A stretch of 64,000 nucleotides of DNA, taken from contig JAGVVH010000415.1 in assembly GCA_019135895.1 (NCBI GenBank), positions 3,226 to 67,225 of the forward strand, given 5' to 3'. The position numbers were made by a program, and so were the translations under genes. This DNA is from Bacteroidota bacterium (lineage in GTDB: Bacteria > Bacteroidota > Bacteroidia > Bacteroidales > WCHB1-69). Shown in pieces: positions 3,182 to 56,598 of this stretch (positions within the stretch are counted from its first letter, which is position 1; every line of letters begins with the position of its first letter). A model generated the notes under the pieces. The model had not been told where the DNA came from. It did not search any database and was given only the letters and a program-made list of their open reading frames with translations.

Positions 3182-3277
3182 AATGGAGAAGAATTATCGA
3201 AAACAAAGATACAAAAAGGGAAAATATGATTACCCAGAGAATACATGCTATTCAAATATAACAATTAATTTTTTTTG

Positions 3278-14412: not shown

Positions 14413-14434
14413 AATTTTTTTAATAGATATAACT

Positions 14435-14998: not shown

Positions 14999-15010
14999 AT
15001 TATTAAAACT

Positions 15011-15391
15011 ATGAATGTACCAACAAATTTAAAGTATTCAAAAGACCACGAATGGGTAAAAATCGAAGGAGATATTGCTTACATTGGAATTACTGCTTAT
15101 GCAGCTGACCAGTTAGGAGATATCGTTTTTATTGATGTAACAACAGTTGGAGATAATCTCGACAAAGAAGAGGTTTTTGGAACAATTGAAGCAGTAAAAA
15201 CTGTATCTGATATTTTTATGCCAATTGGTGGTGAAATTATTGAGTTTAATGAAGCACTTGAAGGGAATCCCGGATTGGTTAATACAGATCCCTATGGCGA
15301 AGCGTGGATTATAAAAATTAATCCTACCGATGTTTCGGAAATGAATGATTTGTTAGACGCTGATGCTTATAAAGCTTTAATTGGCGAATAA
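15011..15391 (+). CDS. gcvH: glycine cleavage system protein H
   Basis: [23 protein letters not shown], and lipoyl-lysine context EAVKTVSD. Confidence 0.92.
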
Positions 15392-25918: not shown

Positions 25919-26392
25919 TTATCTTGATACATTTAAAATCTCAAATTGTATTTTGCCTGCCGGAACATCAACCGTAATCTTATCTCCGCTTTGTTTGCCT
26001 AATAATGCACTTGCAATAGGCGATGTGACAGATATTTTCCCAAGTTTTATGTCAGCTTCAGATTCAGGAACTATAGTATAGCTCATTTCAACTTTATTAG
26101 AAATATTTTTAATTTTAACAATAGAATATAGCAATATCTTAGAAGTGTCAATTTTAGTTTCATCTAAAACTCTTGCATTTGCAATTAAGTTTTTCAATTT
26201 GGATATTTTAAGTTCAAGAAGCCCTTGTGCCTCTTTAGCGGCATCATATTCTGCATTTTCCGAAAGATCTCCTTTATCTCTGGCTTCAGCAATTGCTGCT
26301 GATATTTTGGGTCTTTCAACAGATTCAAGTTCTAACAACTCTTGTCTTAAAGTTTCTAAACCTTCTTTTGAATAGTATTTAATTTTGTTCAT
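25919..26392 (-). CDS. greA: transcription elongation factor GreA
   Basis: Length 157 aa. ARDKGDLSENAEYDAAKEAQ (coiled-coil finger) and C-terminal SPIASALLGK. Confidence 0.93.
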   Translation of the reverse strand: MNKIKYYSKEGLETLRQELLELESVERPKISAAIAEARDKGDLSENAEYDAAKEAQGLLELKISKLKNLIANARVLDETKIDTSKILLYSIVKIKNISNKVEMSYTIVPESEADIKLGKISVTSPIASALLGKQSGDKITVDVPAGKIQFEILNVSR

Positions 26393-26423
26393 AATTTCTA
26401 TTGTTTGAATAACAATGAAAATT

Positions 26424-26445
26424 AAAGAGGCCCAAAAGCCTCCTT
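26424..26445 (-). terminator. probable terminator of the three-gene outer-membrane operon
   Basis: GC-core stem gaggc (26427-26431) / gcctc (26438-26442) with flanking A:T pairs. On the minus strand it is followed by CTTTAATTTTC. Confidence 0.45.
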
Positions 26446-26476
26446 AATTTAATATTTTAAAAGGATTATATGGTTT

Positions 26477-27634
26477 CTAGAGTGCTACTTTTAAACTAAT
26501 ATAATGGTTTCCTTTCCATTTATTTGTAAATCTATATGCATAATCTAAAATTAATTTCTGATTTCCCTTGTTCTTTTTTACAAGAGGAATACCCAGAGAA
26601 ACTCCGGCGCAAGGACCAGAATACCATGTTGTGCTGGTTTTAGCATTCCACATACCTCCCTCAATAGTATATCCAGCGCGAATCATAAAAATATCCATAA
26701 GACTATATTCAATTCCCAAAGCGAATAAGTCTCTGGAGTAAGAATTTGCAGTGAATGAACCGGCCAATGTTATTCTGCTTGTTGCATCATTTCGGGTGAG
26801 TCCTTCGTCAATTCTATCTTCTTTGCTCATAGTCTTATATTCTTTTCCCCAAAAAAGGAAGTCATAGGAAATACCGATAGTAAGTAATGAAGGCATTTCG
26901 AATTGAGCAGAACGTTGTTCCAAAGTTAATTCATGATCAGTAGCGTTAACAATTCCTCTGAGAGAATAACCATCACCGGCATAACGCATAGGAAGACCGA
27001 TGTTCTTCATGGTAACTCCAATTTTGAAATTTTCGTAAGGACCAGAAAGATACTGAACGCCGGCATCAATTGCAAAACCTGTTGTACTAAGATCTGCAAT
27101 ACTTTCATTAATTAATTTAAATGATACACCGCCATGGATATATTTATTAAATGATTTGGCATAATGCAAGCCAATATAGAGTAGATTAGGAGAAAAAGTT
27201 CCCATATTACCTTCGGGTTGGGGAACTGTTGTAATTTCAATATCTCCAAAGCCCATAGAGAATACAGAGATACCTAATACACCAAAATTTTTAATAATTT
27301 TTCCTGTTTCCTTATCTTTTTTGGTAAGTGATTGAGCAAGTGCAAAAGAATTAATAGAAATCCCGGAGCCAACCAGATATTGAGTTCTGGAAAATCCAAA
27401 TTCAGTTTTTTTAATAAAAGCCATTCCGGCTACATTAGAGTAAATTGATTCTAATCCACGAATTTCAGCAACTCCCGCAGTTCCCCATCCGTTGGTTCTT
27501 GCCCAGGGGTCAATCAGTAAATGTTGTGCACCTGCTTGGCCTGAACGGTCTTTATTTCCTGCAAATACTTGAGTACTTACAGATAATATTCCCATTAAAG
27601 CGATAATTATTAATGTTTTATATGTTTTATTCAT
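26477..27634 (-). CDS. PorV/PorQ-family (FadL-like) outer-membrane beta-barrel protein
   Basis: Signal peptide. N-terminal signature LLIDPWARTNGWGTAGVAEIRGLESIYSNVAGMAF parallels the PorV-type motif. About 385 aa with alternating-strand composition. Confidence 0.55.
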   Translation of the reverse strand: MNKTYKTLIIIALMGILSVSTQVFAGNKDRSGQAGAQHLLIDPWARTNGWGTAGVAEIRGLESIYSNVAGMAFIKKTEFGFSRTQYLVGSGISINSFALAQSLTKKDKETGKIIKNFGVLGISVFSMGFGDIEITTVPQPEGNMGTFSPNLLYIGLHYAKSFNKYIHGGVSFKLINESIADLSTTGFAIDAGVQYLSGPYENFKIGVTMKNIGLPMRYAGDGYSLRGIVNATDHELTLEQRSAQFEMPSLLTIGISYDFLFWGKEYKTMSKEDRIDEGLTRNDATSRITLAGSFTANSYSRDLFALGIEYSLMDIFMIRAGYTIEGGMWNAKTSTTWYSGPCAGVSLGIPLVKKNKGNQKLILDYAYRFTNKWKGNHYISLKVAL

Positions 27635-27669
27635 AGTCGTATAATATTAAAATTCACAAATTAATAATG

Positions 27670-30600
27670 TTAAAATGCATTTAAGTCAACAGGACGCATT
27701 GCACAGAAGAATTTTAAGGTTCTTTCTCCAATACCCGGGGCTTTTACGTGAATTATGTAAACACCACTTGCAATAGGAATACCGGCATTGTTTTTAAGAT
27801 CCCAATTTACATATGTAGACCCACTGTCTCCTTTTGAAATAGATTTTACCAAAAGCCCACCTACCGTGAAGATAGATATAGAACAATTCTCAGGTAAATT
27901 TACAATTTTAATATAATTTTCCAATGCAGTCGATTCATACATTGAAAAACCATAGTATGGATTAGGAACTACATTAATCTCATCAAGAATACTCTGATGT
28001 GTAGATTCAGCATTAGTAGTTGGAGCAATATTTTTTGTTGTAAAAGTATACATAGGGAATCCATTATTTTGAGATGCGTTTGAAGCAGTCGAAGGGTTGT
28101 CATACCAGCGGGAAGAATATCTCATATAAGGACGGGAAACACGAAGTTTGACAATAGCTTGATTTGAAAGCCAGTTTTCATTTTGGCCGTATGCCGGCAT
28201 AGGAATACTGGTCCACATAACATTATTAAATAATTGCATTTTAAACTGATGAATAATGCTATTACTTAATGTTGAATTATCAACAAACTGAGAGAACTTT
28301 GCCTTTAACCAAGAACATTCATCATATGGACCACATTCGTAGAAAGGATAATCTTTTCCACCAAAAGAGAATGATCCGCCTTGGTTAATTCCATTACTCA
28401 GGAAATATTGATAGCTGTCATTGTAGTTACGTTTTCTATCAAAACCTCTGGCACTGTAAAAAATAGAATTTGTATTACCGCTACTTCCACAAACATATAC
28501 AAAGTGTTTTCCACCCCATACTGGTTCAGTTGTTCCGGTAAAAATACTATTATAAGTTGCTGCATTAATTGGGTAAAGTGTGTCAATACCTTCATCTTCA
28601 TTTGTGTAATGAAAATATGCATAAACATCAGTAGGATTAAAGAGCATATCATTTCCATTATTTCTGGTGTCAGATGAATTTTCTGAAAACATAATATTAA
28701 GACGCTCCCCTGTTTCCACATTGATTGCATAACCCGGGAACCAACCCATACCATATGAATCAGGATCAGAATCAGGGTTCCCATCTTTATCAACGGAGCG
28801 GTGTTTTCTTGGCTCATTTTTCAATGCTCCACCTTCTGAGAGAGTTTCATCATCACAAGCTTCAAGAACAATACAATGTGTCCATTTACTCTTATCGGGA
28901 GTAAGAACAATGTCAACAGAATAAATGTTGGTCATTGTCTGATTAAACCCAGGACAATTAGGAATTGCACCCAACAATGTGAAGTCGTAATAAGGTTCTT
29001 CAGGTTGTACTCCCGGAATGGTGTCAGGTTTAATATATTTTGCCTGAGGTCCGCCATTATAAGGAGACGACAAAACATAAGGAGCCCAAGTTCCTCCAAT
29101 AGCGTCTTCAAATTGTCCCTTAGGATCTTTCCATCCTCTGGATTGCCAACTGTCATTAAGTGTACCTGCAGCCATTAACATGAAGAAATCTTCAGTCTTC
29201 CATTTTGCATAATCATCCCTAACTCCTTCTCCTGCTTCCAATCCTTGCCATTGACCAGAGTTTTGTTGTCCTGAACGAATCCAGTTATTCGGGAAATCTC
29301 CTTCACCATCTTCAACTCCACCCAACCATGGTTTGCTGTTGTCAGCATATTCTATGCTGGAGCCGATGAAGTCTACTTGTGCATATTTAGAAAGGTTAAC
29401 ATAATTTAAACCGGTGGATGTTGATTTTACCCAATCCATTAATTCTTTTTGATGAATTTGAAATTCATAATTTTTAATAGATATAGAAATACCAAGAGGA
29501 AGAATCAATTGTTCATTAGTCATGTCAATACTCATTTTAGAATTGATTATTCTAATAGGGTTGTTATCTTCATCAACTAAATTCAAACTGATAAGTTCTT
29601 CATCAGTAACATCCATAATTTCAAGTTGCCAATTAGTAGAATCTGTAACATCGTCGGCATTTTCAATAAATTTGATAGTATAGTCAAAAGGTTTAACTTT
29701 TAATGGGTCAATAACTTTAATTCCAAGTGGACCATAATTATTTTTATATTGGATTTCATTTATAGCCCATGTTGGTTGTCCGTAATCGTCAAGCTCTCCA
29801 CCAGAGATGATTTTATCTCTTGATTCGTCAGTCATGTCAAGAAAATAACCTCCGTTGCCTTGTCCTTCAATTCTGGTTATCATGGGTTGTGTACCATATG
29901 CAGAATTTAGAACAGTTCCTTCATTTTGAGGAGTTGTTTTGTGAGGTATTCCGGAATATACTTTTATATTCTTTCTACCGGCAAGAAATACTTTTTGCTG
30001 TCCTGCTAAGCCTTCAACACCATTTGTGATAGAATAAGGTGCGAATTCATTGTAGGCATAAGCAATAACCATATAATAATATGTTTTATGATTTACTAAT
30101 TCAGTTGCAGTTGTGGCAAATTTATCTTCGGTTAATTTAAGTGAGTGATAAATTCCATTATTTGAACCATTTACCATTTCTGTTGCAACAGATGAAGCAA
30201 CAGCGTCATTGTAAACCCAGTTAACTAATTGTCCTACAGCGCTTCCGTCAGATCTGTAATTTTCAATATCACATTGACCAACCAGCTTGGCTTTATCAGG
30301 ATCATCAAGATCAGTTACACTTATACTTTTATTTTTCAATTGATAAATCATATATCCTTCAAAACGGTATTTTCTATCATTTGGAATTTTATCAATTGAA
30401 GTGACTTGTCTTGTATAAGTAATGATAGTATCGCGTCCATCTTGTGTGTAAGCATGTATTGTATCAGTCACATTATAAGAAGTTTCAACTTCTCTAAATT
30501 CAGCGATCTGATTGTCAAATTCTTCGTATTCTTCATTATAGTTATTGCTTAACTTGTCATCATTGGAGATGTAAAGGATAAGTTCATTTTCAAGTTCGCG

Positions 30601-32397
30601 AATAGTGATATCAGGTGCATCGGGTCCATCCAGTACTTTAAAGCAGTTTTCAAAAAGTGATTGACATTTATCGTCAGCAATTTTCAAAAGTTCAACGGAA
30701 GCCCAGGCACCGCCCTGTGAGGCACGCGCCCAAGGAATACCGACAGTAATGTAGTTGACAGAACCGGCTTTCAGTGTGAAAGGTCCGGCAGATTGCATAA
30801 AACGACGGTCATAAGGAGCATTTCCAACATTAGCTTCTGTCCATCCACCGTCACCATATTGTGATATGTTAGGATCAATACCGGCAGTTCCCCAATTACA
30901 AGGGTCTGTTGTTCCGGGGAACATAAAATCACATTCCGGACCTGAAGCCCCGTTTGATGGATGTGCATTTGCTCCATATCTCATTCGTTGATTATCTCTC
31001 CAAATACCTTGTAACATATTATAATAATCAATAGCTACATCTGGATCTCCGGTAGGAGAGTCATTATTGTTGTGGTAAACAAATCTTCTCATTCCGAAAC
31101 GTTCATTGTCAACAATGCCATCACCAAAGTTAACTCCGTTGATTGCCATTTGATCAACAGCATATTCGCTTTCCAAAAAACGATCACAATATCCGTTTAC
31201 AATAGAAGAATCTTTGTAAAATTTAGGGTTGTCTCTGCCATCATCGTCGATATAAGGTCCTTGAAAAAAGTCAACTCCAACAGCAGGTGGTTGATTACTA
31301 TATGCCCAAGTTTGACCAGTTCCGTCAACATCATAGCCATTGTAACAATAACCCAATCCTCTGGCTACATCGCAACCGACATAGTCATCATTGGCATAAC
31401 CCAAATCAGGGTCAACCCATTGTGAGAAAAAAGTATTGGTTAATTCATAAGTAGATCTATTGATGATTTCATAAGAATAGAAAGTCATGTTGTTTAGATC
31501 GTCATTGGTAGCAAAACCAAATGCTTGTCCACGAATTTCAAGGCCGATAGGTTCTCCTTCGGATTCGGTATGAGCACCTCCTTTATCATTGAAAATCCAA
31601 TAGAGTGTCTCATCCCCTTTAAGAACGTGGTCAGCATAGATCATTCCGGTGGTAACACCGGAAGCTTCTTCAGGAGTAATCGGGAGCATTCCTGCAGCAG
31701 CCAAAGCTCTATTTGCTTCAGTCCAAGGACATAAATCATTGTCAAGGTCATAATAAGGATAATCACCTTGATCCGGATTGTATTCACCGTCTTCACCTAA
31801 ATCCTTAAATGGAGCCAGATATTTGGATTGTCCTTTGGAAACATCCCCATGTGCAGGCCAGTTGGTAATAATTGAAGGAGTGACATATTCCGGGTCAATC
31901 AAAGTTCCGTTTTCGTCGAAAGCAGCGATATGAGCTTCTACCTGAGCACGAGTAATTTTAAAATGTTTATCATATTGACTGCAAGTTTCCTGATCTACAG
32001 ATGCGCCTACAACTGTAAGTGGACCTGTCCAAAAATCATCTCCTTTTTGGCGAAAACGGACAGCAGCCAATTTTAATTGTTGATTAATATCTCTTCCTCC
32101 AATCCATAAGGCAGAGGAAAACATTGAAGTCATTCCGGAGCCAATAGGCACTTCATATTCTGCAACTTCTTTGAACCACATTGTTCCGTTTGTTTCCAAA
32201 TATGCTCTAACATTATTGATTGTCAGTTCATTTGAATTGGTAGCGGGAAGGCAGGAGGCATTTGCTTTTTGTTTTGTAGAAATTTGGACATTTCTTGATC
32301 TTTCTGCCAATACCGACGAGGAAGCAAGGAGTGTGAAAATTCCAACTAAAATTAAAATTTTGTTTATATTCTTCATGTCTCGATTTATTTTTTTCAT
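27670..32397 (-). CDS. giant (1575 aa) secreted protein with a T9SS-type C-terminal sorting domain, function unknown
   Basis: Signal peptide ILILVGIFTLLASSSVLA. C-terminal VVPNPYYG...CSISIFTVGGLLV...WDLKNNAGIPIASGVYIIHV...LKFF resembles the Por secretion tail. No PorU/C25 or other catalytic motif seen. Confidence 0.7.
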   Translation of the reverse strand: MKKINRDMKNINKILILVGIFTLLASSSVLAERSRNVQISTKQKANASCLPATNSNELTINNVRAYLETNGTMWFKEVAEYEVPIGSGMTSMFSSALWIGGRDINQQLKLAAVRFRQKGDDFWTGPLTVVGASVDQETCSQYDKHFKITRAQVEAHIAAFDENGTLIDPEYVTPSIITNWPAHGDVSKGQSKYLAPFKDLGEDGEYNPDQGDYPYYDLDNDLCPWTEANRALAAAGMLPITPEEASGVTTGMIYADHVLKGDETLYWIFNDKGGAHTESEGEPIGLEIRGQAFGFATNDDLNNMTFYSYEIINRSTYELTNTFFSQWVDPDLGYANDDYVGCDVARGLGYCYNGYDVDGTGQTWAYSNQPPAVGVDFFQGPYIDDDGRDNPKFYKDSSIVNGYCDRFLESEYAVDQMAINGVNFGDGIVDNERFGMRRFVYHNNNDSPTGDPDVAIDYYNMLQGIWRDNQRMRYGANAHPSNGASGPECDFMFPGTTDPCNWGTAGIDPNISQYGDGGWTEANVGNAPYDRRFMQSAGPFTLKAGSVNYITVGIPWARASQGGAWASVELLKIADDKCQSLFENCFKVLDGPDAPDITIRELENELILYISNDDKLSNNYNEEYEEFDNQIAEFREVETSYNVTDTIHAYTQDGRDTIITYTRQVTSIDKIPNDRKYRFEGYMIYQLKNKSISVTDLDDPDKAKLVGQCDIENYRSDGSAVGQLVNWVYNDAVASSVATEMVNGSNNGIYHSLKLTEDKFATTATELVNHKTYYYMVIAYAYNEFAPYSITNGVEGLAGQQKVFLAGRKNIKVYSGIPHKTTPQNEGTVLNSAYGTQPMITRIEGQGNGGYFLDMTDESRDKIISGGELDDYGQPTWAINEIQYKNNYGPLGIKVIDPLKVKPFDYTIKFIENADDVTDSTNWQLEIMDVTDEELISLNLVDEDNNPIRIINSKMSIDMTNEQLILPLGISISIKNYEFQIHQKELMDWVKSTSTGLNYVNLSKYAQVDFIGSSIEYADNSKPWLGGVEDGEGDFPNNWIRSGQQNSGQWQGLEAGEGVRDDYAKWKTEDFFMLMAAGTLNDSWQSRGWKDPKGQFEDAIGGTWAPYVLSSPYNGGPQAKYIKPDTIPGVQPEEPYYDFTLLGAIPNCPGFNQTMTNIYSVDIVLTPDKSKWTHCIVLEACDDETLSEGGALKNEPRKHRSVDKDGNPDSDPDSYGMGWFPGYAINVETGERLNIMFSENSSDTRNNGNDMLFNPTDVYAYFHYTNEDEGIDTLYPINAATYNSIFTGTTEPVWGGKHFVYVCGSSGNTNSIFYSARGFDRKRNYNDSYQYFLSNGINQGGSFSFGGKDYPFYECGPYDECSWLKAKFSQFVDNSTLSNSIIHQFKMQLFNNVMWTSIPMPAYGQNENWLSNQAIVKLRVSRPYMRYSSRWYDNPSTASNASQNNGFPMYTFTTKNIAPTTNAESTHQSILDEINVVPNPYYGFSMYESTALENYIKIVNLPENCSISIFTVGGLLVKSISKGDSGSTYVNWDLKNNAGIPIASGVYIIHVKAPGIGERTLKFFCAMRPVDLNAF

Positions 32398-32412
32398 TAT
32401 TACTTCATTATA

Positions 32413-35400
32413 TTAAAAACCAAATTGAAGTCCCAAACTAACCCTTGCAGGTGTGCTGTAGTTATAAGGATTTTGCATTATCATATTGTAATAGTTAATG
32501 TAGGAAGGCACATATATCTGTGAATTAATTTGTTGTTGATATTCAGTAGCTGAAAGGTATCCATCATCATCAGGATTTCCGGTGTATGTATATACAGATA
32601 TAATGTTTTTAAAATTAAAAATATTAGTAATATCTAAATAAACAAGCAGGTATGCATTTTTAGAATTTTTTTGTTTTCCTTCTTTGTCTTTAGAATTTAG
32701 ATTAAAAATAAAAGTTTTATCAATACGGATGTCGCATTGGAAAGTCCATGGTTTATGAGAACCATTTATAGATCCTGAAAGTTGAGAAGCGGTTCCTGAA
32801 ACGTAGGTTGAGTAAGGTGTACTTGAGCGGCTATAAGGGAGACCTGAAGCTGCTGATAATAGAAGAGTTATTCCGGTATTTTCAAGCCATCTGATTTCTT
32901 TAACTTTATTAGTTCCTTTTTTAGAATATTGAGATTTGGGACCGTTATAGTCGGCACCTCCATCAAAACGGTAGTCAATATTGGCACTAATACGATGTCT
33001 TTGGTCAAAAGAAAGATTATTTAATGTTCTTAAATTAGGTTGACCTGAAGCAATGATGGCGAGGTTTGAAGAAGCCGAGGATCCGGTTCCTTTTGCAAAT
33101 TGCAAAGTATAACCTGCACGAAGAGAAATATTTTTTATTCTTCTTAAATCATAGCTTAAAGAGAAGCCCTGAACTGTTCCAAAGTCAAGATTAGCATAGG
33201 AGTAATAAGTACTCGGATATGAACCGGAATAACGGTATGCCTGAATCTGGTCACGTTTTTCAGAATAATAAGCAGTAATTCCGATTGCCGATTTATCACT
33301 TACTTTTTGAGTAAAACTAACCTCATAGTCAATACTTTTTTGAGGTTTAAGGTTTGGATTGTTTACAATATTATTTGCATTGGTCCCGAATTTTTCTATA
33401 AAGAGATAATCAATAGGACTTAATTGTAAGTTGGTAGGACGGGAGGTGATAATATTATAGTGAGCAGTAAATACTGAGTTATCTGAAACAGGAAATGAAA
33501 ATGAAACACGTGGCATAATAGACCATTGTGGTTTATAATCTTCAAAAGCACTTGGGTCAACTTTTGAAATAGCTCCGTTTTCAAGAGCATCTACTAAGAT
33601 TGGACCACCATTAGCTCCCAACATGTTTTCAGGATCGGCTACTTCTTGACCCTGACTATCATACCAAGTATTTCCGTTTCGATAACCGATGATAGTAGTA
33701 TTATCTAAATCAAGAGTTCCATCTTTTTGGTTTACATATACAACCCAGTCGTCTCCTGCGTTATTAGTAAAATATTGATCCCTCATATAGCCTTTCTCAA
33801 CTAAATCTCCAACAGTGTATGCTGCGCGGAATAAGTAAGGGTCAGACAATACAGATTGATTTGCATCGAAACGGTCAATGCGGACACCAATATTAAACAA
33901 TAAACTCTGAATAGAGAATTTGTCCTGTAAGTATAAAGCCATATATATAGGTTCATAAGCTCCAATATTGTAAGTCTTATTACCATTTTCATCTGTAGAA
34001 TTAAAGAAATCGTAAATCGTAGTTTTTTTATTGTATTTGTGAGTTCCTGTATAATCATAACCATAATAATTTACCAGAGAACTGCTGAGTCCAACCAATA
34101 ATTCTTCGGCTGAGAACATGCTTAAATCATAAGTTTCAGGAGAAAGATTATCAATATCAATCCAGTCGCTGCCATTAGGATCCAATCCCAGTGAAGTACG
34201 TAAATTTCTGTCGAAAGAAGTTTGTTCATCCAAATTGATTAAATTATTATAATCAACAGTATCTCCATGAATGATGGGATTGTCAACATCAAGCTCATTA
34301 ATATGGAAGTTGGCTTTTTGTCTCATCATTGTCCAAAGTGGAGTTGGATTAACTGAGAATCCACGACTGGTAAGTTTTTCAAATTCATAACCTAATTTAA
34401 ATTCATGATCTTTTAGATTAACAGATAAACTTGCTTTAGCCCCTAAAGAAGTTAATTCGGATTTGCTATAACCATCGGTAATTGCACCAGGCATATAAAA
34501 AAGGCTATAAACACGATCAGGCTGGTCTCCGTTTCTCAAAGCTCCGAACTGAGAATATAAAGTCAAGTTATAAGGTACTGTATATCCGTAATAGTCATTA
34601 ATTATTTCAGGAGTGAACTGATCAACAAAATTCTGAGTATAGTAAATTAAGTCCGGATTAGAGCTTCCTGTTGCATCAAAAGTAACTAAAGAATCATAGA
34701 TATTGGTCAATACAGTCATATCATAATACATAATAGAATCGATTTTTATATCCTGTAATTCATAATATTTAGCTTTGGTAGTTTTAAAATATCCAATATG
34801 ACCATAATTAAACAATTTATCTTTATGTCTTGCATCCTGAGTTAATGAATTAAACTTAGTATAGTTAATATTAATATCATACATAATATTTTTAAAGATA
34901 GCGGTATCACTTGGATTGGTATAAACTCTATGATTGATTCGGGCATTCAATCTCATGGTAGAGTTTTGTGATTCAGAGTTGTTTTGAGCATTAAACAGTG
35001 CAGTTGACCTACCCCAGTTTTTACCTTTTAAGAATTCATAAGAACCACCCACGGATATCTTTACATTATGTGTTTTTCCTGTAAGGAAATCAAGTTTTCC
35101 CTGCAAGAGATAATTCCAGTAACCGGCATGATCTCTTACTCTTCTTTTATAGAAAGCATCACTTTCAAGGTAACTGGCGCTTTGATACCATACTCCGAAA
35201 TCAGTTGGGTCATAACGAAGCGGAGTTTTAATCAAATAGTCAATAGTTTCATCAGTAGCTCGCCAAGTTCCACCTTGTGCAGGAGAGTTATCGATATCAT
35301 AAGAAATTTCACCTGTGAGCAAAAATCCAATTCTGGCAGGATCTGAAAGTTTTTTTCCTTTGAGGAGAGGCCCTGAAAGAGAAAGAGCTCCAAGGAAATT

Positions 35401-36132
35401 GCCATAGCCTTCAAGAGAGCCTCTTAGTTCAGCAGCTCCATGAAAATCTTTAGAAATACCTTTTGTCGTAATAACGGTAAAACTGGTTCCATCACCATAT
35501 TCAGCAGGAATACCTCCCTGAATTAATTCGGCTTCTTCAATTGATTGCATAGAAACTCCACCATTACCTCTGACACGCACACCATCAATAATTGTTTGTT
35601 GTCCATCAGGACGATTTCCGCGGACACTGGCAATGGCTCCGTCTTGAATGGTAACACCTTCCACACTGGCAAGTGCTGCATTGATGGATCGACCGGGGGT
35701 TCTTCGTAAATCCTCACCAGTAATAGTGACTGACTTTTTTGTTTCATCTTGATCAAATACGGGCTTTTCCCATTTAATTTCCACGGCAGCAAGTTCTTGA
35801 CCACACGTGATGGTAGCATTTTCAAACATTACAACATTAGGGGAGATGGAAATACCTGTTTTCTTGTATGTGTTTGAACAACCAAGAGGCCCGGTAATTT
35901 CAAGATCATATTTTCCGGCAGATATACCGAACAGTTGGTATTCTCCCTTTTCATTAGTCATAGCATAATTCACAACTTTATCATCCTGTTTCAAATATAC
36001 GTTTGCATAAGCCAAGGCCGACTTAGTTTGATCTTTAACAGTTCCTTTTAAAGTACTTTGTTGTGAGTACGCAATTTCGCTGCAAAGGAAGATAATTCCA
36101 AGAGCAAATAGTAACTTTTTAATCATAGCCAT
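32413..36132 (-). CDS. oversized (1239 aa) TonB-dependent-receptor-like plug/barrel protein with CarboxypepD_reg-like domain
   Basis: Signal peptide. TLKGTVKDQTKSALAYANVYL...NEKGEYQLFGISAGKYDLEI. Plug-like ASVEGVTIQDG...VRGNRPDGQQTIIDGVRV. Ends GLQFGF (terminal aromatic). Confidence 0.75.
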   Translation of the reverse strand: MAMIKKLLFALGIIFLCSEIAYSQQSTLKGTVKDQTKSALAYANVYLKQDDKVVNYAMTNEKGEYQLFGISAGKYDLEITGPLGCSNTYKKTGISISPNVVMFENATITCGQELAAVEIKWEKPVFDQDETKKSVTITGEDLRRTPGRSINAALASVEGVTIQDGAIASVRGNRPDGQQTIIDGVRVRGNGGVSMQSIEEAELIQGGIPAEYGDGTSFTVITTKGISKDFHGAAELRGSLEGYGNFLGALSLSGPLLKGKKLSDPARIGFLLTGEISYDIDNSPAQGGTWRATDETIDYLIKTPLRYDPTDFGVWYQSASYLESDAFYKRRVRDHAGYWNYLLQGKLDFLTGKTHNVKISVGGSYEFLKGKNWGRSTALFNAQNNSESQNSTMRLNARINHRVYTNPSDTAIFKNIMYDININYTKFNSLTQDARHKDKLFNYGHIGYFKTTKAKYYELQDIKIDSIMYYDMTVLTNIYDSLVTFDATGSSNPDLIYYTQNFVDQFTPEIINDYYGYTVPYNLTLYSQFGALRNGDQPDRVYSLFYMPGAITDGYSKSELTSLGAKASLSVNLKDHEFKLGYEFEKLTSRGFSVNPTPLWTMMRQKANFHINELDVDNPIIHGDTVDYNNLINLDEQTSFDRNLRTSLGLDPNGSDWIDIDNLSPETYDLSMFSAEELLVGLSSSLVNYYGYDYTGTHKYNKKTTIYDFFNSTDENGNKTYNIGAYEPIYMALYLQDKFSIQSLLFNIGVRIDRFDANQSVLSDPYLFRAAYTVGDLVEKGYMRDQYFTNNAGDDWVVYVNQKDGTLDLDNTTIIGYRNGNTWYDSQGQEVADPENMLGANGGPILVDALENGAISKVDPSAFEDYKPQWSIMPRVSFSFPVSDNSVFTAHYNIITSRPTNLQLSPIDYLFIEKFGTNANNIVNNPNLKPQKSIDYEVSFTQKVSDKSAIGITAYYSEKRDQIQAYRYSGSYPSTYYSYANLDFGTVQGFSLSYDLRRIKNISLRAGYTLQFAKGTGSSASSNLAIIASGQPNLRTLNNLSFDQRHRISANIDYRFDGGADYNGPKSQYSKKGTNKVKEIRWLENTGITLLLSAASGLPYSRSSTPYSTYVSGTASQLSGSINGSHKPWTFQCDIRIDKTFIFNLNSKDKEGKQKNSKNAYLLVYLDITNIFNFKNIISVYTYTGNPDDDGYLSATEYQQQINSQIYVPSYINYYNMIMQNPYNYSTPARVSLGLQFGF

Positions 36133-36156
36133 TTATTTATATTAAACATTATTATT

Positions 36157-36207
36157 TTGTCAGAAAATTCTGGGCGGTAAATTTATAAAAATAATTTGTT
36201 CTGACAA
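36157..36207. promoter_or_regulatory. 9-bp inverted repeat in the leader of the outer-membrane operon
   Basis: ttgtcagaa (36157-36165) and ttctgacaa (36199-36207) are exact reverse complements 33 nt apart. On the minus strand the spacer contains TAAATTTA, a near match to the -7 box. Confidence 0.35.
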
Positions 36208-36244
36208 TTTATTTTTTTTGAAAGCCCAATATTTTTATAATATC

Positions 36245-36710: not shown

Positions 36711-37127
36711 ATGAAAAAATTATTTTTTATATTATTCTGTTTTTGGTGCTTAATTGGTTGTAATGGTTATGAGCACGAGACTATTCCTAACGTTCAAGTA
36801 GATTTTACTATTTATCCAAATGATGTTGCATACTATAGTTTAAATAATTATGGAGGGCATATGTATTTTACCGGAGGTGTGAGGGGAATTGTTGTCTATA
36901 GGCTTGATCCATATACTTTTATGGCCTATGATCGTGCATGCCCTTACGACTGGGAAGATAACGATTCTTGGATTTGGGTGGAGGAAAGTGGTATTACACT
37001 TATTGACAGTTGTTGTGGCTCCAGATTTAATATATTGGATGGCTCTGTTATTAATGGTCCTGCAATCTATTCGTTAAAGCATTACAGAACAACCTTTGAC
37101 GGAGTAAAACTTCGTGTCTATAACTGA
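36711..37127 (+). CDS. lipoprotein with a degenerate Rieske-like domain
   Basis: MKKLFFILFCFWCLIGC lipobox. ACPYDW...DSCCGSRFNILDGSVINGPA follows the Rieske CxH...CxxH...GPA pattern, but both His ligands are replaced. Confidence 0.45.
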   Translation: MKKLFFILFCFWCLIGCNGYEHETIPNVQVDFTIYPNDVAYYSLNNYGGHMYFTGGVRGIVVYRLDPYTFMAYDRACPYDWEDNDSWIWVEESGITLIDSCCGSRFNILDGSVINGPAIYSLKHYRTTFDGVKLRVYN

Positions 37128-37924
37128 GGCATCATTTCATATACTAGTTGCACCATTTTGGGCCCTGCTGCTGCGGCTTCCTTCAGCACTTCTTCATGGG
37201 AAGCTTTTTCAACTTTTCCAATAATACCCAAATCTGTTATTACAGATAATGCAAATACTTCCATTCCCCTGTGTTTGGCAGCAATTGTCTCCGGAACAGT
37301 TGACATTCCAACAGCATCGGCTCCCATATAATGAAACATTCTGTATTCTGCGGGGGTTTCAAAACAAGGACCGGTTACGCCCATATATACACCTTGTTGA
37401 AGGTGTATGTTGATTTTTTTTCCTGTTTCCAAAGCAATCTTAATCAGCTTCTTAGAATATGCCTCGCTCATATCGGGAAAGCGGGGTCCTTCATTGTCTT
37501 CGTTTGGTCCAAGTAGTGGATTGTTTCCGAAAAAATTAATATGGTCATTTATTATCATAATATCTCCAATTTTAAATGTGGGATTCATCCCTCCTGCAGC
37601 ATTTGACAATATTATTTTTTCAATTCCAAGCTCTTTAAGAATCTGAATTGGAAGAGTAACTTCTTTCATTGAATATCCTTCATAATAATGAAACCTGCCA
37701 TTAAGAACAATTACATCTACGTTATTTAATTTTCCAAAAATCCAGGTTCCTTTATGTCCTTTAACCGTCGAAACAATAAAATCAGGAATTTCTCGGTATG
37801 GGATTTCAATTCTTTCTTTTATTTTATCAACAAGGCCTCCTAAACCTGACCCTAAAATTATTGCAATTTTAGGGCGATTTGTCATCTTTTCTTTTAAATA
37901 CTTAACAGTTTTATCTATGTTCAT
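37118..37924 (-). CDS. purine nucleoside phosphorylase, trimeric (PunA/human PNP) type, copy 1
   Basis: Collinear with human PNP: GRFHYYEGY, SNAAGG, GPCFETPAEYRM, GADAVGMSTVPE, then SVITDLG where human has SLITNKV. Confidence 0.9.
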   Translation of the reverse strand: MNIDKTVKYLKEKMTNRPKIAIILGSGLGGLVDKIKERIEIPYREIPDFIVSTVKGHKGTWIFGKLNNVDVIVLNGRFHYYEGYSMKEVTLPIQILKELGIEKIILSNAAGGMNPTFKIGDIMIINDHINFFGNNPLLGPNEDNEGPRFPDMSEAYSKKLIKIALETGKKINIHLQQGVYMGVTGPCFETPAEYRMFHYMGADAVGMSTVPETIAAKHRGMEVFALSVITDLGIIGKVEKASHEEVLKEAAAAGPKMVQLVYEMMPQL

Positions 37925-37984: not shown

Positions 37985-38800
37985 CTATGAAATCAAAGGC
38001 ATCATTTCATAAATTAGCTTCACCATTTTAGGTCCTGCAATTTCAGCTTCTTTAAGAACCTCTTCCAAAGATACTTTTTCTATTTTTCCGGTAATACCCA
38101 AATCAGTTATAACAGATAAAGCGAAGACTTTTATATTTCTGTGACGTGCCATTATGGTTTCAGGCACAGTTGACATTCCGACTGCATCAGCACCTAAATA
38201 ATGAAACATCCTGTATTCTGCCGGAGTTTCAAAGCAGGGCCCGCTTAATCCCAAATATACACCCTGTTGAAGATGAATATCTGTTTTTTTTGCACAAGTT
38301 AAAGCAATATTGATTAATTCTTTCGAATATGCTTCGCTCATATCAGGGAATCGTGGACCTAAATTGTCATCATTTGCTCCTATCAAAGGATTGGTCCCGA
38401 AAAAATTAATATGATCGGTAATAATCATGATATCACCAATTTTGAATGCCGGATTCATTCCACCTGCCGCATTTGATAAAATGAGTTTTTCTATTCCAAT
38501 TTCTTTCATGATTTGGATAGGCATTGTTACTTCATTTAATGTGTAACCTTCGTAATAGTGAAACCTTCCATTAAGGACAACAACATCAACTCCGTTAAAT
38601 TTTCCAAAAATCCAGGTCCCTTTATGACCGCTAACAGTTGAAATAGGAAAATTTGGAATATCTTGATAGGGTATTTCAAGTTCTACTTGTAACTTTTCAA
38701 CAAGTCCACCCAGACCTGTTCCCAAAATAATGCCTATTTTGGGTTTTGAAAACATTTTGTCTCTTAGATAATTAATTGACGATTGAATTGGATCTAACAT
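37985..38800 (-). CDS. purine nucleoside phosphorylase, trimeric type, copy 2 (tandem paralogue)
   Basis: Carries the same motifs as copy 1, and most residues are identical by eye. The start is set at ATG 38800 (MLDPIQSSINYLRDKM) by alignment with copy 1, giving a 29-nt overlap with the end of lpxK. Confidence 0.88.
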   Translation of the reverse strand: MLDPIQSSINYLRDKMFSKPKIGIILGTGLGGLVEKLQVELEIPYQDIPNFPISTVSGHKGTWIFGKFNGVDVVVLNGRFHYYEGYTLNEVTMPIQIMKEIGIEKLILSNAAGGMNPAFKIGDIMIITDHINFFGTNPLIGANDDNLGPRFPDMSEAYSKELINIALTCAKKTDIHLQQGVYLGLSGPCFETPAEYRMFHYLGADAVGMSTVPETIMARHRNIKVFALSVITDLGITGKIEKVSLEEVLKEAEIAGPKMVKLIYEMMPLIS

Positions 38801-39845
38801 ATTGCTTGATAATATCATTAAAAATTTCATCTTCTTCAAAAAGAAATTTAACTTCTATAGGGATAGTAAAAACCGGCATAGAATTAATTTCATCTAGTAA
38901 GGCTTTACTCCTAAATCGCATCATATCTTTTTCTGTCGTAAAAACAACAGTGTTTGATTTTAGTTCATCCGAAATCCTTTTTTTGATAATAATCATATCT
39001 TTTTTAGTAAAGAAATGATGGTCTTGAAATTTTAAATGCAATACTTTTTTGTATTGCTTTGAAAGTCTTTCATATAATGGTTTTGGGTGAGCTATTCCGG
39101 TAACTAATAGAATAGTCGTTTCGGCATTAAGAGCAATTTGTTTAGCGGGTAAAGTTTGAGGCTCCGGATTACCATATACATAGGTTGTAAAAAACAATCT
39201 TTGTCTTGGGAAAAGTGCTATTTTTTCACAAAAAACATCCTTTTCTAATCGGGTAATACAATCAGGGGTTTTAGAAACTATAATGATGTCAGCAATATTT
39301 GCCGTGTTACGAAATTCTCTTAAATTCCCTGCCGGAATAGGATAATCATTAAAAAAGGGTTTTTCATATTCTGTCAGTAATATCTTTAGCCCTGCATTGA
39401 CTTGAATATGTTGATAGGCATCATCCAATAAAATTAATTGCAAAGATGGGAATTTGTTAGTGAGATTGATAATTCCTATTTTCCTTTTTTCTGCAACTGC
39501 TACTTTTGTATTAGGATATTTGACATAATATTGCATGGGTTCATCTCCGATTAGTAAAGCATCCGTATTGCTTATCTCAGTATCATTTAAAAGAATATAT
39601 CCTTTAGAAATACGTCCGTAACCTCTGCTCAAAGTTGCAATTTCCCATTCTGGAAACAATAATCTTATTAAATATTCTGTATGGGGTGTCTTTCCGGCTC
39701 CTCCCAAACATAAGTTTCCAATAGCAATTGAGGGGAGTTTGGGATCAAACGGTTTTACAATTTTGTGATGGTATAAAAAACGTCTTATCCAAAGAAAAAA
39801 TCCATAAATCAAAGAAAAAGGGAGAAGTATTAACCTGATTTTCAT
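38772..39845 (-). CDS. lpxK: tetraacyldisaccharide 4'-kinase
   Basis: P-loop IAIGNLCLGGAGKTPHTEYL, SRGYGR, LLDDAYQH. Confidence 0.9.
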   Translation of the reverse strand: MKIRLILLPFSLIYGFFLWIRRFLYHHKIVKPFDPKLPSIAIGNLCLGGAGKTPHTEYLIRLLFPEWEIATLSRGYGRISKGYILLNDTEISNTDALLIGDEPMQYYVKYPNTKVAVAEKRKIGIINLTNKFPSLQLILLDDAYQHIQVNAGLKILLTEYEKPFFNDYPIPAGNLREFRNTANIADIIIVSKTPDCITRLEKDVFCEKIALFPRQRLFFTTYVYGNPEPQTLPAKQIALNAETTILLVTGIAHPKPLYERLSKQYKKVLHLKFQDHHFFTKKDMIIIKKRISDELKSNTVVFTTEKDMMRFRSKALLDEINSMPVFTIPIEVKFLFEEDEIFNDIIKQYVRSNSIVN

Positions 39846-46783: not shown

Positions 46784-48934
46784 ATGAAGTGCTATTACTA
46801 TTGTAAGTTATTTTTTGTTTTAATTTTCGTTTTGTGTTTTGCTAATTTTTTGGCAGCACAAGAAGTTCTGACAGATCTTCCCAATAATATTCAGCTTTTA
46901 AAAGAATCAAAAAATGTTCATATTAAATCTTCTATAACTAATGCTGAACCTGTTAAACTACCTTTTGTAGATGATTTTTCTGATTATAATCTATATCCCA
47001 ATCCCCTGTTATGGGAAGATAAACAAGGTTTTGTCAATTCCACTTTTCCTATTAATCCACCCTCAATCGGTGTTGTTACATTAGATGCCCTTGATGAGTT
47101 CGGGAAAATTTATAGCCATGCTTCAGAGTCGCCTTTTGCTGCTGACACTCTTACTTCACATACTATAAGATTGGATTCAGTATTTAATCCGAATCGACCA
47201 GTTGGGATACAAGATTCAGTTTATTTCAGTTTTTATTATCAACCGGGAGGCGGTACTTTTTCTCATCCTTATCTTGAATGGGAAAGAATTGGAAATCGAC
47301 CGGATAATGAAGATAAACTGATTCTTGAGTTCGGGTATGCTACCGGAGATACTATTTTCACCGGTTATTCTTATGCTGAATATATTTTAGGTGAAGGAGA
47401 ATCATACGTGATAGGGGATTCTCTTGAAAATCCCTATATCCCAGGCACTTATTATGTTTTTGAATCAAATGCTTTCCCCGGTCAGACCATATTATTACCT
47501 TTTGATTCCCTTTTCGGTCCTGAAAAAATTTGGAGTGAGGTTTGGTCATCAAACGGTTGTAAGCTGGATGATTGGCTGGATGCAGATTCTTTAAGGTTGA
47601 CTTATTTTAAACAGGTGCTTATCCCAATTACGGATCCTATATATTTTCGAAACAATTTTCAGTTCAGATTTCGAAATTATGCCAGTCTTGAGCCAAACGG
47701 AGTTGCCGGCTGGGCAAGCAATGTTGACCAATGGCACATTGATTATATAATTCTTAATATTAACAGAACCAAAGATGATATTTATCCCAATGATATCGCT
47801 TTTGCCCTGCCTACTACTACTTTTCTCAATAAATATTATTCAATGCCCTGGAATCAATTTCAAGTTTCCGATATGAAAAGTGCTTTTAATAATCAACTTG
47901 CAAATATTTCCAATACAACTAAAAATACAAGCTATTCTTATCATGTTGTAAAAAACGGAAGTCAGATAGTTGGAAATTATGTGAGCAATAATGAAAATGC
48001 CTATTCTTATTACCCAAATGGTTTTCATACCTATCCTATGCACGCCAATCCGTCAATAAACTTTGCAATTTCTTATGATAATCAGGATAGTGCAACTTTC
48101 TTGGTGACTCATATTTTTCAAGTTGTAGGAGGAACCGGTGATGCACGTCATCAAAATGATACCTCTTTTTTTGAACAGAAATTTTATAATTATTATGCGT
48201 ATGATGATGGAACTGCAGAGGCAGGCTATTCTCTTCTTTCCACTATGGCTTCTCCTGAAGCATCATTTGCAGTAAAATTTACATTGGCTTATCCCGATAC
48301 ATTGCGTTGTGTAAGAATGTGGTTTAACAATGTTCTTGAAAATGCTAATTTTGATTATTTTACACTGAAAGTATGGGATGATGATAATGGCTTTCCCGGA
48401 AATGAATTATATTCTTCTGAATCACTGCTTCCTTCTCAAAGTTCTGATTTTCTTGATTTTGTGAGTTATTTTTTGGAAGAACCTTTGTTTGTCTCAGGTA
48501 CTTTTTATGTTGGCTTTTATCAAAATCACGATACTCAACTCAATCTTGGATTTGATCAGAATAGTGATGCTCGAGGAAATTTTTTTTATAAAACTGCTGA
48601 TGAATGGGTTGAATCTTTCTTCAAAGGAGCTCCGATGGTTAGACCGGTATTGGGTAAATATTTTAGCCCGGTATCTGTTCCAAATAACTCTCCGGTGACT
48701 TTTTCGGTTTTCCCTAATCCAACTTCTCAATATGTTACCATTAAACTAAATGATGATAGTTATAATTTTGATAAAGTTATGATATATGATATGTATGGAA
48801 AACTTTTGAAAATCTATACTTCTGGCCAAAATAGCAATGTTATTGATTTATCTTCTTTTGCCCCGGGTGTCTATGTTTTGCATTTAGTTAGTGGAAGTAA
48901 AATATTGGGTATTTCAAAAATTGTCAAACTATAA
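46784..48934 (+). CDS. secreted protein with a T9SS type-A C-terminal sorting domain, function unknown
   Basis: Signal peptide. C-terminal FSVFPNPTSQYVTIKL...VMIYDMYGKLL...LSSFAPGVYVLHL...KIVKL is a classic Por secretion tail. Confidence 0.75.
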   Translation: MKCYYYCKLFFVLIFVLCFANFLAAQEVLTDLPNNIQLLKESKNVHIKSSITNAEPVKLPFVDDFSDYNLYPNPLLWEDKQGFVNSTFPINPPSIGVVTLDALDEFGKIYSHASESPFAADTLTSHTIRLDSVFNPNRPVGIQDSVYFSFYYQPGGGTFSHPYLEWERIGNRPDNEDKLILEFGYATGDTIFTGYSYAEYILGEGESYVIGDSLENPYIPGTYYVFESNAFPGQTILLPFDSLFGPEKIWSEVWSSNGCKLDDWLDADSLRLTYFKQVLIPITDPIYFRNNFQFRFRNYASLEPNGVAGWASNVDQWHIDYIILNINRTKDDIYPNDIAFALPTTTFLNKYYSMPWNQFQVSDMKSAFNNQLANISNTTKNTSYSYHVVKNGSQIVGNYVSNNENAYSYYPNGFHTYPMHANPSINFAISYDNQDSATFLVTHIFQVVGGTGDARHQNDTSFFEQKFYNYYAYDDGTAEAGYSLLSTMASPEASFAVKFTLAYPDTLRCVRMWFNNVLENANFDYFTLKVWDDDNGFPGNELYSSESLLPSQSSDFLDFVSYFLEEPLFVSGTFYVGFYQNHDTQLNLGFDQNSDARGNFFYKTADEWVESFFKGAPMVRPVLGKYFSPVSVPNNSPVTFSVFPNPTSQYVTIKLNDDSYNFDKVMIYDMYGKLLKIYTSGQNSNVIDLSSFAPGVYVLHLVSGSKILGISKIVKL

Positions 48935-56581: not shown

Positions 56582-56598
56582 TTATTAATTTCCCTACT

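Follow-up and report, generated by a model that had tools for sequence, protein, structure and literature searches.

A conserved three-gene operon of Bacteroidia combines a TonB-type barrel, a giant protein with a PorZ/PorU-like C-terminal domain and a PorV-family paralogue

Introduction

What might a TonB-type outer-membrane barrel, a giant secreted protein and a PorV-family barrel be doing together in one operon? The question is raised by a locus in a Bacteroidota bacterium of the Bacteroidales lineage WCHB1-69 (assembly GCA_019135895.1, contig JAGVVH010000415.1), from which 64,000 nucleotides (nt; positions 3,226 to 67,225 of the forward strand, 34% G+C) were analysed and are referred to here as the window. 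Three co-directional minus-strand open reading frames (ORFs) of 1239, 1575 and 385 amino acids (aa), here called genes 1, 2 and 3 and together the trio, are separated by 15 nt between genes 1 and 2 and by 35 nt between genes 2 and 3, and are preceded by a leader of 112 nt running from the end of the upstream ORF (36245) to the start of gene 1 (36132). A first-pass annotation made from the sequence alone had delimited the same three ORFs, gaps and leader, and its coordinates and lengths proved exact (Table 1).

We tentatively propose that the trio forms an outer-membrane complex in which gene 2, exported through a type IX secretion system (T9SS), would be docked on gene 3 through an uncleaved C-terminal domain (CTD) and a tail, serving gene 1 as a surface capture or processing subunit. 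We regard this as quite possible while holding it short of probable, and the evidence for and against it is set out below.

Results

The C-terminal domain and tail of gene 2

The first-pass annotation had read a signal peptide and a T9SS-like CTD with extra residues in gene 2. The N-terminus is indeed signal-peptide-like, and NCBIfam, Foldseek and the alignment of relatives bear out the CTD and the extra residues. When the last 129 residues of gene 2 were searched against NCBIfam, the PorZ C-terminus ranked first (1.6e-9) and the PorU sortase C-terminus second (6.5e-4), while the type A CTD model TIGR04183 reached 19.2 bits (E 9e-4), below its cut-off of 23 bits. Foldseek matched the CTD to PorZ (5m11, 8e-6) and PorU (6za2, 1.4e-3), as well as to the translocon-bound CTDs of NucA and RemZ (8glk, 8gl8), and a sequence profile of the CTD searched against the PDB placed PorU and PorZ at the top, weakly. 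PF18962 was found in only 3 of 25 gene 2 relatives, with a best E of 0.011, and the type B CTD models TIGR04131 and PF13585 gave no match to gene 2. The PNP motif and late lysine of the seven-strand immunoglobulin (Ig)-like fold are present as VPNPYY and K1562, both invariant. Judged by profile scores and by predicted structure, the gene 2 CTD is closer to those of PorZ and PorU than to the generic type A model.

This likeness bears on the fate of the domain, as PorU and PorZ are the two T9SS substrates known to retain their CTDs, with PorV holding the former on the cell surface and PorQ the latter (PMC10202324, PMC12365241). In type A CTDs a lysine contacts PorV (PMC10994853), and its equivalent in the gene 2 family is K1562. 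By analogy with PorU and PorZ, the CTD of gene 2 would be retained on the mature protein.

Gene 2 does not end at the last CTD strand, as about nine further residues (MRPVDLNAF) follow LKFF. Within this tail, M1567, R1568, P1569, D1571, N1573 and F1575 are invariant in 25 relatives, and the arginine and aspartate are invariant in 26 diverse family members. The pattern K-x2-x3-R-x2-D-x3-end is fitted by 438 of 485 full-length family members (~90%), among which proline occupies position -7 in 87%, L/F/Y position -4 in 97% and F/Y the last position in 97%. Conservation of the tail matches that of the CTD core, and AlphaFold2 places a short helix there with low confidence. A few family members (P0199, P0389, P0393, P0408) carry an ordinary type A CTD and have no tail; neither of the two whose genomic context was examined belongs to a trio.

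The body of gene 2

No NCBIfam model matched the full gene 2 protein, and Pfam gave only a sub-threshold FlgD_ig match near the C-terminus, with none in the body across 25 relatives (E<=0.1). In the PDB, neither the gene 2 sequence by itself nor a profile of 80 sequences found a match. AlphaFold2 models built on the 80-sequence alignment (residues 33-1050, predicted local distance difference test (pLDDT) 79.7, predicted template modelling score (pTM) 0.72; residues 880-1575, pLDDT 86.5, pTM 0.79) are of reasonable confidence, multidomain and mostly beta-strand. With these models Foldseek returned weak PDB matches of the body to beta-sandwich domains of the glycoside hydrolase (GH) families GH15, GH94, GH63 and GH116, at template modelling (TM) scores <=0.2 and root-mean-square deviations >7 A; with TM-scores of 0.2 or less, homology to these glycoside hydrolase and phosphorylase domains was not accepted. 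Many Asp, Asn, His, Glu and Arg residues of gene 2 are invariant.

Gene 2 is not PorU, since only its CTD aligns (to residues 993-1076 of NF033707; 17.4 bits, cut-off 420) and the C25 peptidase domain of that model is left unmatched. It is not PorZ either, as only positions 665-740 of NF052228 align (36.8 bits against 260) and the propellers are unmatched; the Foldseek alignment to PorZ 5m11 spans 127 columns, which is the CTD only. The first-pass annotation had recognised no catalytic motif in gene 2, and no catalytic domain emerged from the Pfam, PDB and Foldseek searches. Its proviso that gene 2 might turn out to be PorU or another characterised family found no support, in that NCBIfam, Pfam and the PDB gave no match to the body.

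Gene 3 as a further paralogue in the PorV/PorQ family

Gene 3 scored 123.8 bits over residues 34-383 on the PorV/PorQ family model NF033709 (cut-off 90), in keeping with its earlier description as a PorV/PorQ-like barrel, and a profile of its family matched PorV of Flavobacterium johnsoniae in the PDB (6h3i_F) at 1.3e-15. Scores against the equivalog models were far below their cut-offs, at 50.5 of 250 bits for PorV (NF033710), 55.5 of 220 for PorQ (NF033711) and 39 of 325 for PorV2 (NF052325), and gene 3 was therefore rejected as PorV, PorQ or PorV2. The possibility that gene 3 is simply the core porV, raised in the first-pass annotation, was checked by the curated PorV and PorQ cut-offs, by which gene 3 is an orthologue of neither. 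Because it passes the family cut-off and fails those of the equivalogs, gene 3 is a further paralogue within the PorV/PorQ family. Four orthologues from other lineages repeat the pattern (133-140 bits on NF033709, 54-69 bits on PorV).

The window holds no second PorV-family gene. In locus L086, a 3.28-Mb contig of a metagenome-assembled genome (MAG), a true porQ (14062-15114, 346.9 bits) lies two genes after the trio, just past greA-HIT, so that a core T9SS barrel gene is linked to the trio neighbourhood in at least one lineage. The organism itself has a T9SS, since the window also encodes PorW/SprE (NF052312, 360 bits against a cut-off of 250, the match starting at model position 277), a PorE/CHU_0125-like OmpA-family protein (314-322 bits, below cut-offs of 600-620) and a 716-aa protein with a standard TIGR04183 CTD.

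Gene 1 as a TonB-dependent-transporter-type barrel

Gene 1 runs from a signal peptide through a CarboxypepD_reg extension, a TonB-box-like stretch, a plug and a large barrel to a C-terminal ...LGLQFGF. Pfam placed CarboxypepD_reg at residues 27-89 (2.2e-10, above cut-off), Plug at residues 128-216 (2.7e-8, 34.7 bits against 23.9) and TonB_dep_Rec_b-barrel at residues 522-1077 (7.3e-14, 52.9 bits against 27), so that a plug is followed by the beta-barrel of a TonB-dependent receptor, the architecture of a TonB-dependent transporter. The CarboxypepD_reg-like domain, plug and terminal aromatic residue noted in the first reading are thus all present. In the PDB, a profile of 37 gene 1 orthologues matched the plugs of Cir (colicin I receptor, 9e-11) and the ferric-enterobactin receptor PfeA, as well as stand-alone N-terminal extension domains from SusC-type receptors, and the same orthologues share a candidate TonB-box stretch, L-x-x-V-E-V-x-x-Y-K-x-P-L-I, between extension and plug.

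The NCBIfam results for gene 1 included no match to the SusC/RagA (TIGR04056-type) model, and none of its neighbours, which comprise genes 2 and 3 and a pair of small ORFs without annotation, is SusD-like, as the first-pass annotation had found in reporting no SusD-like partner. A polysaccharide utilisation locus (PUL) of the SusC/SusD type was rejected on these two grounds. The same annotation had called gene 1 oversized, which holds against classical TonB-dependent receptors of 600-800 aa; the usual length of the SusC/RagA type is exceeded by only about 10-20%.

Conservation of the gene order

Synteny was assessed at 80 loci from species-level genomes, with counts limited where contigs end. 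Gene 1 lies directly upstream of gene 2 in 78 of the 80 and gene 3 directly downstream in 79, the two exceptions to the former and the single exception to the latter being contig-end cuts. About 72 of the 80 have greA after gene 3; the others are mostly contig ends, while in L052, L053 and L062 the flanking sequence retrieved contains no greA. Gaps between the trio genes are mostly 7-60 nt. Amino-acid identity spans 37-64% for gene 1, 43-95% for gene 2 and 40-98% for gene 3, and because each ORF is conserved over the 80 genomes within this overall range of 37-98%, the three are real genes. The trio with greA-HIT behind it also occurs in four more distant lineages (L086, L088, L097 and L098). 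A failure of the gene order in related genomes, which the first-pass annotation had named as grounds for discarding its proposal, was not encountered, the order holding wherever the contig reaches in the 80 genomes and the four distant lineages.

The outer neighbours vary by lineage. In the close clade the block lies between LpxK and LptF/G plus a glycosyltransferase, and LpxK and LptF/G flank it in that clade only.

Close homologues of gene 2 number >5,000, the best 120 of them being full-length with 59-89% identity, and a filter-free search with residues 41-1240 returned 7,027 clusters at 50% identity (E<=1e-3), or 1,939 at E<=1e-30. Family members are typically 1,300-1,450 aa long, and a scan of one genome per species found a gene 2 relative in at least 521 genomes. 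The closest relative, Bacteroidetes bacterium OH_PDB_151, has 95% identity, and exact copies of all three window proteins occur in several metagenome assemblies. Named relatives are all MAGs, labelled Bacteroidales, Lentimicrobiaceae, Bacteroidia, Marinilabiliales, Saprospiraceae or 'Chlorobi', and searches from different seeds found MAGs only among the named gene 2 homologues, with no cultured or characterised organism. One of these loci, L068, comes from a Lentimicrobium MAG. Two loci (L009, CAVCMI010000009.1; L037, CAVEXN010000001.1) are titled 'Oscillospiraceae bacterium' and two more (L012, L073) just 'bacterium'; these bins are probably mislabelled or contaminated.

Gene 2 also has paralogues outside the trio. 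A lone copy occurs in L085 (8001-11822), a second copy lies just after greA in L057 (9950-14227), tandem copies in L087 (9001-17166) stand beside a histidine kinase and response regulator, GH97 and GH172, a tandem array is found in L089 (5618-16879), and a further copy lies in L090 (3915-8054). Some of these paralogues adjoin BNR-repeat proteins. The R-P-x-D-L-x-x-F tail recurs in the L085 copy, the L057 copy and one L089 copy, and such same-tail paralogues may share the gene 3 anchor. The first-pass description of a PorV-family barrel 'hard-wired' to a giant CTD-bearing protein and a TonB-type barrel is supported, with a reservation over the single cargo, as paralogues with the same tail exist outside the trio.

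Operon boundaries, start codons and leader

Past the gene 3 stop lies a 14-pair hairpin (26450->26419, minus strand) followed by a T-rich tract, TCATTGTTAT, which is the hairpin and tract that the first-pass annotation had placed behind the trio; no other terminator-like site in the scanned 11 kb is as strong. The scan found 7 such sites against 6.2 expected, no excess over chance, with the trio hairpin having the longest stem; as the total is not above chance, support for a terminator rests on the position of this hairpin and the length of its stem. With short gaps, a single conserved promoter-like leader and the sole strong hairpin after gene 3, the three genes form one operon, and the next gene downstream is greA.

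Two of the ORFs are probably called slightly too long, judging from their alignments. Gene 1 probably starts at the second in-frame ATG, 36126 (MIKKLL), which would give a protein of 1237 aa, 2 residues shorter than the ORF, because GCTATGATTAAAA is common to all aligned leaders and the first ATG is not conserved. Gene 2 probably also starts at its second in-frame ATG, 32376 (MKNINKIL), giving 1568 aa and removing 7 residues, since M8 is invariant and the family consensus opens with MKNI.

In order to find conserved elements, 72 orthologous leaders were compared, of which 19 aligned leaders of the close Bacteroidales clade were analysed with RNAalifold. A promoter-like -7 box, TAAATTTACCGCC, is conserved as TAnnTTTACCGCC/GAC in the same place in most of the 72 leaders and has one exact match in the whole window. 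A second box, GTTTAATATAA, takes the form GTTTAATAT in 40 of the 72 leaders; its GTTT-AATATAA is invariant in the 19 aligned leaders, it also has one exact match in the window, and it is kept across loci (window, L001-L043 and others) whose proteins share no more than 55-64% identity. In the Lentimicrobiaceae-like clade CTAACATAAAA stands in its place. In many loci the box reads as a mini-ORF, ATG TTT AAT ATA AAT TAA, whose stop overlaps the ATG just before the conserved start.

RNAalifold predicted zero pairs across the 19 leaders, and a riboswitch or attenuator was rejected on that ground; neither the Rfam nor the tRNA scan gave a match anywhere in the window. Because no RNA structure is predicted, the GTTTAATATAA box, to judge by its conservation, could be a translational or regulatory element. 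The inverted repeat that the first-pass annotation saw in the leader is real, with core TTGTCAGAA/TTCTGACAA, but it is not a conserved feature, the only leaders with it being those of the window and of L005, a relative of 95% identity; as it is absent from the other 70 leaders, it was rejected as a conserved operator.

Other genes in the window

None of the small ORFs flanking the trio (134, 154 and 194 aa) matched anything in Pfam or NCBIfam. For the one of 134 aa, upstream of gene 1, about twenty related loci have a weak homologue in the same place (27-42% identity; 93% in L005). Tandem PNP_UDP_1 (purine/uridine phosphorylase) genes lie between LpxK and the trio, where L001 has one. Elsewhere in the window, a second TonB-dependent receptor of 953 aa is of the TonB-Xanth-Caul type (182 bits, below cut-off) and is followed 11 nt behind by a 471-aa ORF that has no NCBIfam match; the two may be another receptor-partner pair.

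Table 1. Positions of the trio, its sequence elements and other genes in the window.
Feature	Position	Strand	Description and basis
Gene 1, TonB-dependent-transporter-type outer-membrane protein, 1239 aa	32413..36132	-	Pfam, family profile, synteny
Gene 2, 1575-aa secreted protein of undescribed family	27670..32397	-	Signal-peptide-like N-terminus, ~1,430-aa beta-rich multidomain body, CTD, tail
Ig-like T9SS CTD of gene 2, aa ~1474-1566	27700..27978	-	VVPNPYYG ... ASGVYIIHV ... LKFF; NCBIfam, Foldseek, PDB profile
Family-specific tail of gene 2, AMRPVDLNAF-COOH	27673..27699	-	Consensus x-M/L-R-P-x-D-L-N/D-x-F; alignments of relatives
Gene 3, 385-aa PorV/PorQ-family (FadL-like) outer-membrane barrel	26477..27634	-	NCBIfam NF033709, profile, synteny
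Intrinsic-terminator-like hairpin	26419..26450	-	14 pairs and T-rich tract; 26 nt past gene 3 stop, ahead of greA
Promoter-like -7 box TAAATTTACCGCC	36173..36185	-	Bacteroidota TAnnTTTG-type, T-run before it; leader alignment, putative promoter
Conserved leader box TGTTTAATATAAAT	36135..36148	-	12-24 nt ahead of probable gene 1 start codon
Leader inverted repeat, arms	36199-36222 / 36142-36165
greA	25919..26392
Small ORF, 194 aa	24978-25562	-
Small ORF, 134 aa	36245-36649	-
Small ORF, 154 aa	36663-37127	+
PNP_UDP_1 gene	37118-37924	-
PNP_UDP_1 gene	37985-38839	-
Second TonB-dependent receptor, 953 aa	5645-8506	+	TonB-Xanth-Caul type
471-aa ORF	8518-9933	+
716-aa protein with TIGR04183 CTD	46784-48934	+
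PorE/CHU_0125-like OmpA-family protein	56545-58530	+
PorW/SprE	62198-63982	-	NF052312

Discussion

A possible surface complex and its alternatives

In the complex that we propose, the T9SS would export gene 2 to the cell surface. Ordinary type A cargo loses its CTD to PorU, while the CTD of gene 2, being of the PorZ/PorU kind and extended by the R-P-x-D-L-x-x-F tail, would stay attached. Because its CTD is of this retained kind with an extra conserved tail, gene 2 would remain docked on its own barrel, gene 3, as PorZ does on PorQ and PorU on PorV. Held at the surface, it would act as an extracellular capture or processing subunit for gene 1, the role that SusD-like and other surface lipoproteins have for SusC-type transporters, and TonB-driven movement of the gene 1 plug would import the ligand.

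Several points weigh against this proposal. We infer the contacts of gene 2 with gene 3 and with gene 1, as well as transport by gene 1 and the nature of its ligand, and adjacency to a TonB-dependent barrel is no proof of transport. The TonB box of gene 1 is a plausible conserved stretch (V-E-V-x-x-Y-K), and the body of gene 2 has no binding or catalytic fold recognisable by Pfam, PDB or Foldseek searches. The known partners of TonB-dependent transporters are far below 1,300-1,600 aa in size. As paralogues with the same tail exist without an adjacent barrel, gene 2 does not strictly require a gene 1 encoded alongside. Finally, the operon is single-copy, highly conserved and set amid housekeeping genes (greA and HIT, with LpxK and LptF/G in the clade), a pattern that suits a role in envelope biogenesis or structure at least as well as nutrient uptake. 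Because the operon is so widely conserved beside such genes, it may be a core envelope component in these lineages, which qualifies the first-pass view of a dedicated machine 'rather than core T9SS'.

The alternative that these last points suggest, and that we judge rather unlikely, is that the trio is an accessory module of the envelope or the T9SS, a third attachment-type complex beside PorU-PorV and PorZ-PorQ, and not a transporter. Gene 2 on its PorV paralogue would then perform surface coat assembly, modification of lipopolysaccharide (LPS) or glycans, or outer-membrane maintenance, and gene 1 would be a platform or an energised partner. Such a role would fit a single-copy operon deeply conserved beside greA-HIT in many lineages, and the close-clade location between LpxK and LptF/G plus the glycosyltransferase would be in keeping with it; the LPS-gene neighbours are not kept beyond that clade, however, with L086, L088 and L097 differing. 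The true porQ two genes past the trio in L086 and the resemblance of the gene 2 CTD specifically to those of both attachment-complex proteins also point this way, but the body of gene 2 shows no similarity to PorU, PorZ, or LPS or glycan enzymes in our searches. The barrel assembly machinery (BAM) of Bacteroidota offers a precedent, in which the FadL-like BamG holds a large surface protein above another barrel (PMC12578637, PMC12611786). Gene 1, for its part, has kept a complete plug and the N-terminal extension that functioning transporters typically have, which argues against a module without transport.

We consider it unlikely that gene 2 is an ordinary T9SS enzyme or adhesin, secreted or attached to A-LPS and perhaps active on glycans, with gene 3 as only its shuttle from the translocon and gene 1 importing the products in a loose 'PUL-like' operon whose proteins form no stable complex. 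The occurrence of gene 2 paralogues alone or in tandem near two-component regulators, GH97, GH172 and BNR-repeat proteins would agree with this, as would the normal type A CTD on some of them. The CTD of the trio protein, however, is below the type A cut-off and closest to two CTDs known to be retained, and its invariant extra tail would be hard to explain on a domain that is cut off and discarded. An enzymatic function is hinted at by how many Asp, Asn, His, Glu and Arg residues are invariant and by the weak Foldseek likeness of the N-terminal part to glycoside hydrolase and phosphorylase beta-sandwich domains, yet no catalytic domain was recognised in gene 2. Polysaccharide utilisation loci are moreover variable, unlike the core-genome style of conservation seen here. 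In favour of a shuttle, there are known cases among type B CTDs of a shuttle dedicated to the cargo next to it (PMC12618676).

That the three are independent outer-membrane genes in an inherited neighbourhood, their adjacency meaningless, is highly improbable: greA and HIT, surely functionally unrelated, are conserved in the same block, so that synteny can persist without a functional link in these lineages, but the very short gaps and the single leader are kept down to 37-45% identity while the outer genes change, and a CTD protein beside a barrel of the CTD-binding family is the known pattern of cognate cargo and carrier (PMC12618676, PMC10202324).

Comparison with known systems

A close parallel is with PorZ-PorQ and PorU-PorV of Porphyromonas gingivalis, in which a T9SS-exported protein with an Ig-like CTD is likewise paired with a 14-strand barrel of the PorV/PorQ family. 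The trio differs in that the gene 2 body has no similarity to the PorU C25 peptidase or the PorZ beta-propellers, gene 3 stays under the equivalog cut-offs for PorV and PorQ, the gene 2 CTD has its extra invariant 9-residue tail, and the gene 2-gene 3 pair is co-encoded with a TonB-type barrel; porZ and porQ are not known to be adjacent in P. gingivalis.

A second comparison is offered by type B CTD cargo with its cognate PorP/SprF carriers, such as SprB-SprF and Fjoh_1677 of Flavobacterium johnsoniae, where one carrier can serve several cargos that share the signal (PMC12618676). There too a large surface protein is encoded beside its own barrel, and the shared carrier parallels the unlinked gene 2 paralogues with the same tail. 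The gene 2 CTD, by contrast, has a type A/PorZ-like Ig fold and is not type B, gene 3 belongs to the PorV/PorQ family (one orthologue scored 25.9 bits against the PorP/SprF cut-off of 90.55), and the PorP/SprF systems have no TonB-type barrel.

With SusC/RagA transporters (SusCD, RagAB) and BtuB-BtuG, gene 1 shares the CarboxypepD_reg extension, plug and large barrel, as well as a co-encoded partner presumed to capture ligand. Unlike those systems, gene 1 matches no SusC/RagA model and has no SusD-like gene nearby, and gene 2 is a putative T9SS substrate three times the size of SusD, not a lipoprotein, whose tether would be a separate barrel. The Bacteroidota BAM complex (BamA-BamG-BamH) resembles the proposed arrangement in that it places a FadL-family 14-strand barrel, bound to a large surface protein, next to a bigger barrel and so builds an extracellular canopy (PMC12578637, PMC12611786). 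Its proteins are unrelated to the trio, however; BamH is a lipoprotein, the T9SS plays no part, and gene 1 does not belong to the Omp85 proteins.

The first-pass annotation had known of no described function for the trio, and no description of it was found in the literature searched. The individual pieces are of known kinds; new are their combination, a third paralogue in the PorV family, an undescribed family of giant proteins and its tail signal.

Implications

The gene 2 family is very large, amounting to ~7,000 clusters when grouped at 50% identity, yet it is covered by no model in Pfam or NCBIfam and by no solved structure, and no paper on it was found. Its named relatives belong to uncultured Bacteroidia inhabiting the rumen, gut, digesters, sediments and freshwater, and this blind spot therefore touches abundant organisms. 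In the broadest interpretation, which we put forward as speculative and doubtful, the trio would represent an unrecognised class of T9SS-dependent machine, in which a third PorV-family barrel permanently latches a giant protein through a new C-terminal signal, a PorZ-like CTD and tail, against a TonB-energised barrel and so couples inner-membrane energy to a surface protein; the class would be core and near-universal in large uncultured lineages of Bacteroidia, and model organisms appear to lack it.

The gene order and the ...K-W/F-F-x3-R-P-x-D-L-x2-F C-terminus provide an annotation signature for thousands of proteins now labelled 'hypothetical' or 'T9SS type A sorting domain'. The trio also makes three ideas testable in Bacteroidota, namely that PorV-family paralogues act as dedicated anchors for particular cargo, as has been hypothesised for PorZ/PorQ (PMC10202324), that a short C-terminal tail on a CTD decides between 'stay bound' and 'be cleaved', and that a TonB-dependent transporter may have a T9SS-delivered partner in place of a surface lipoprotein.

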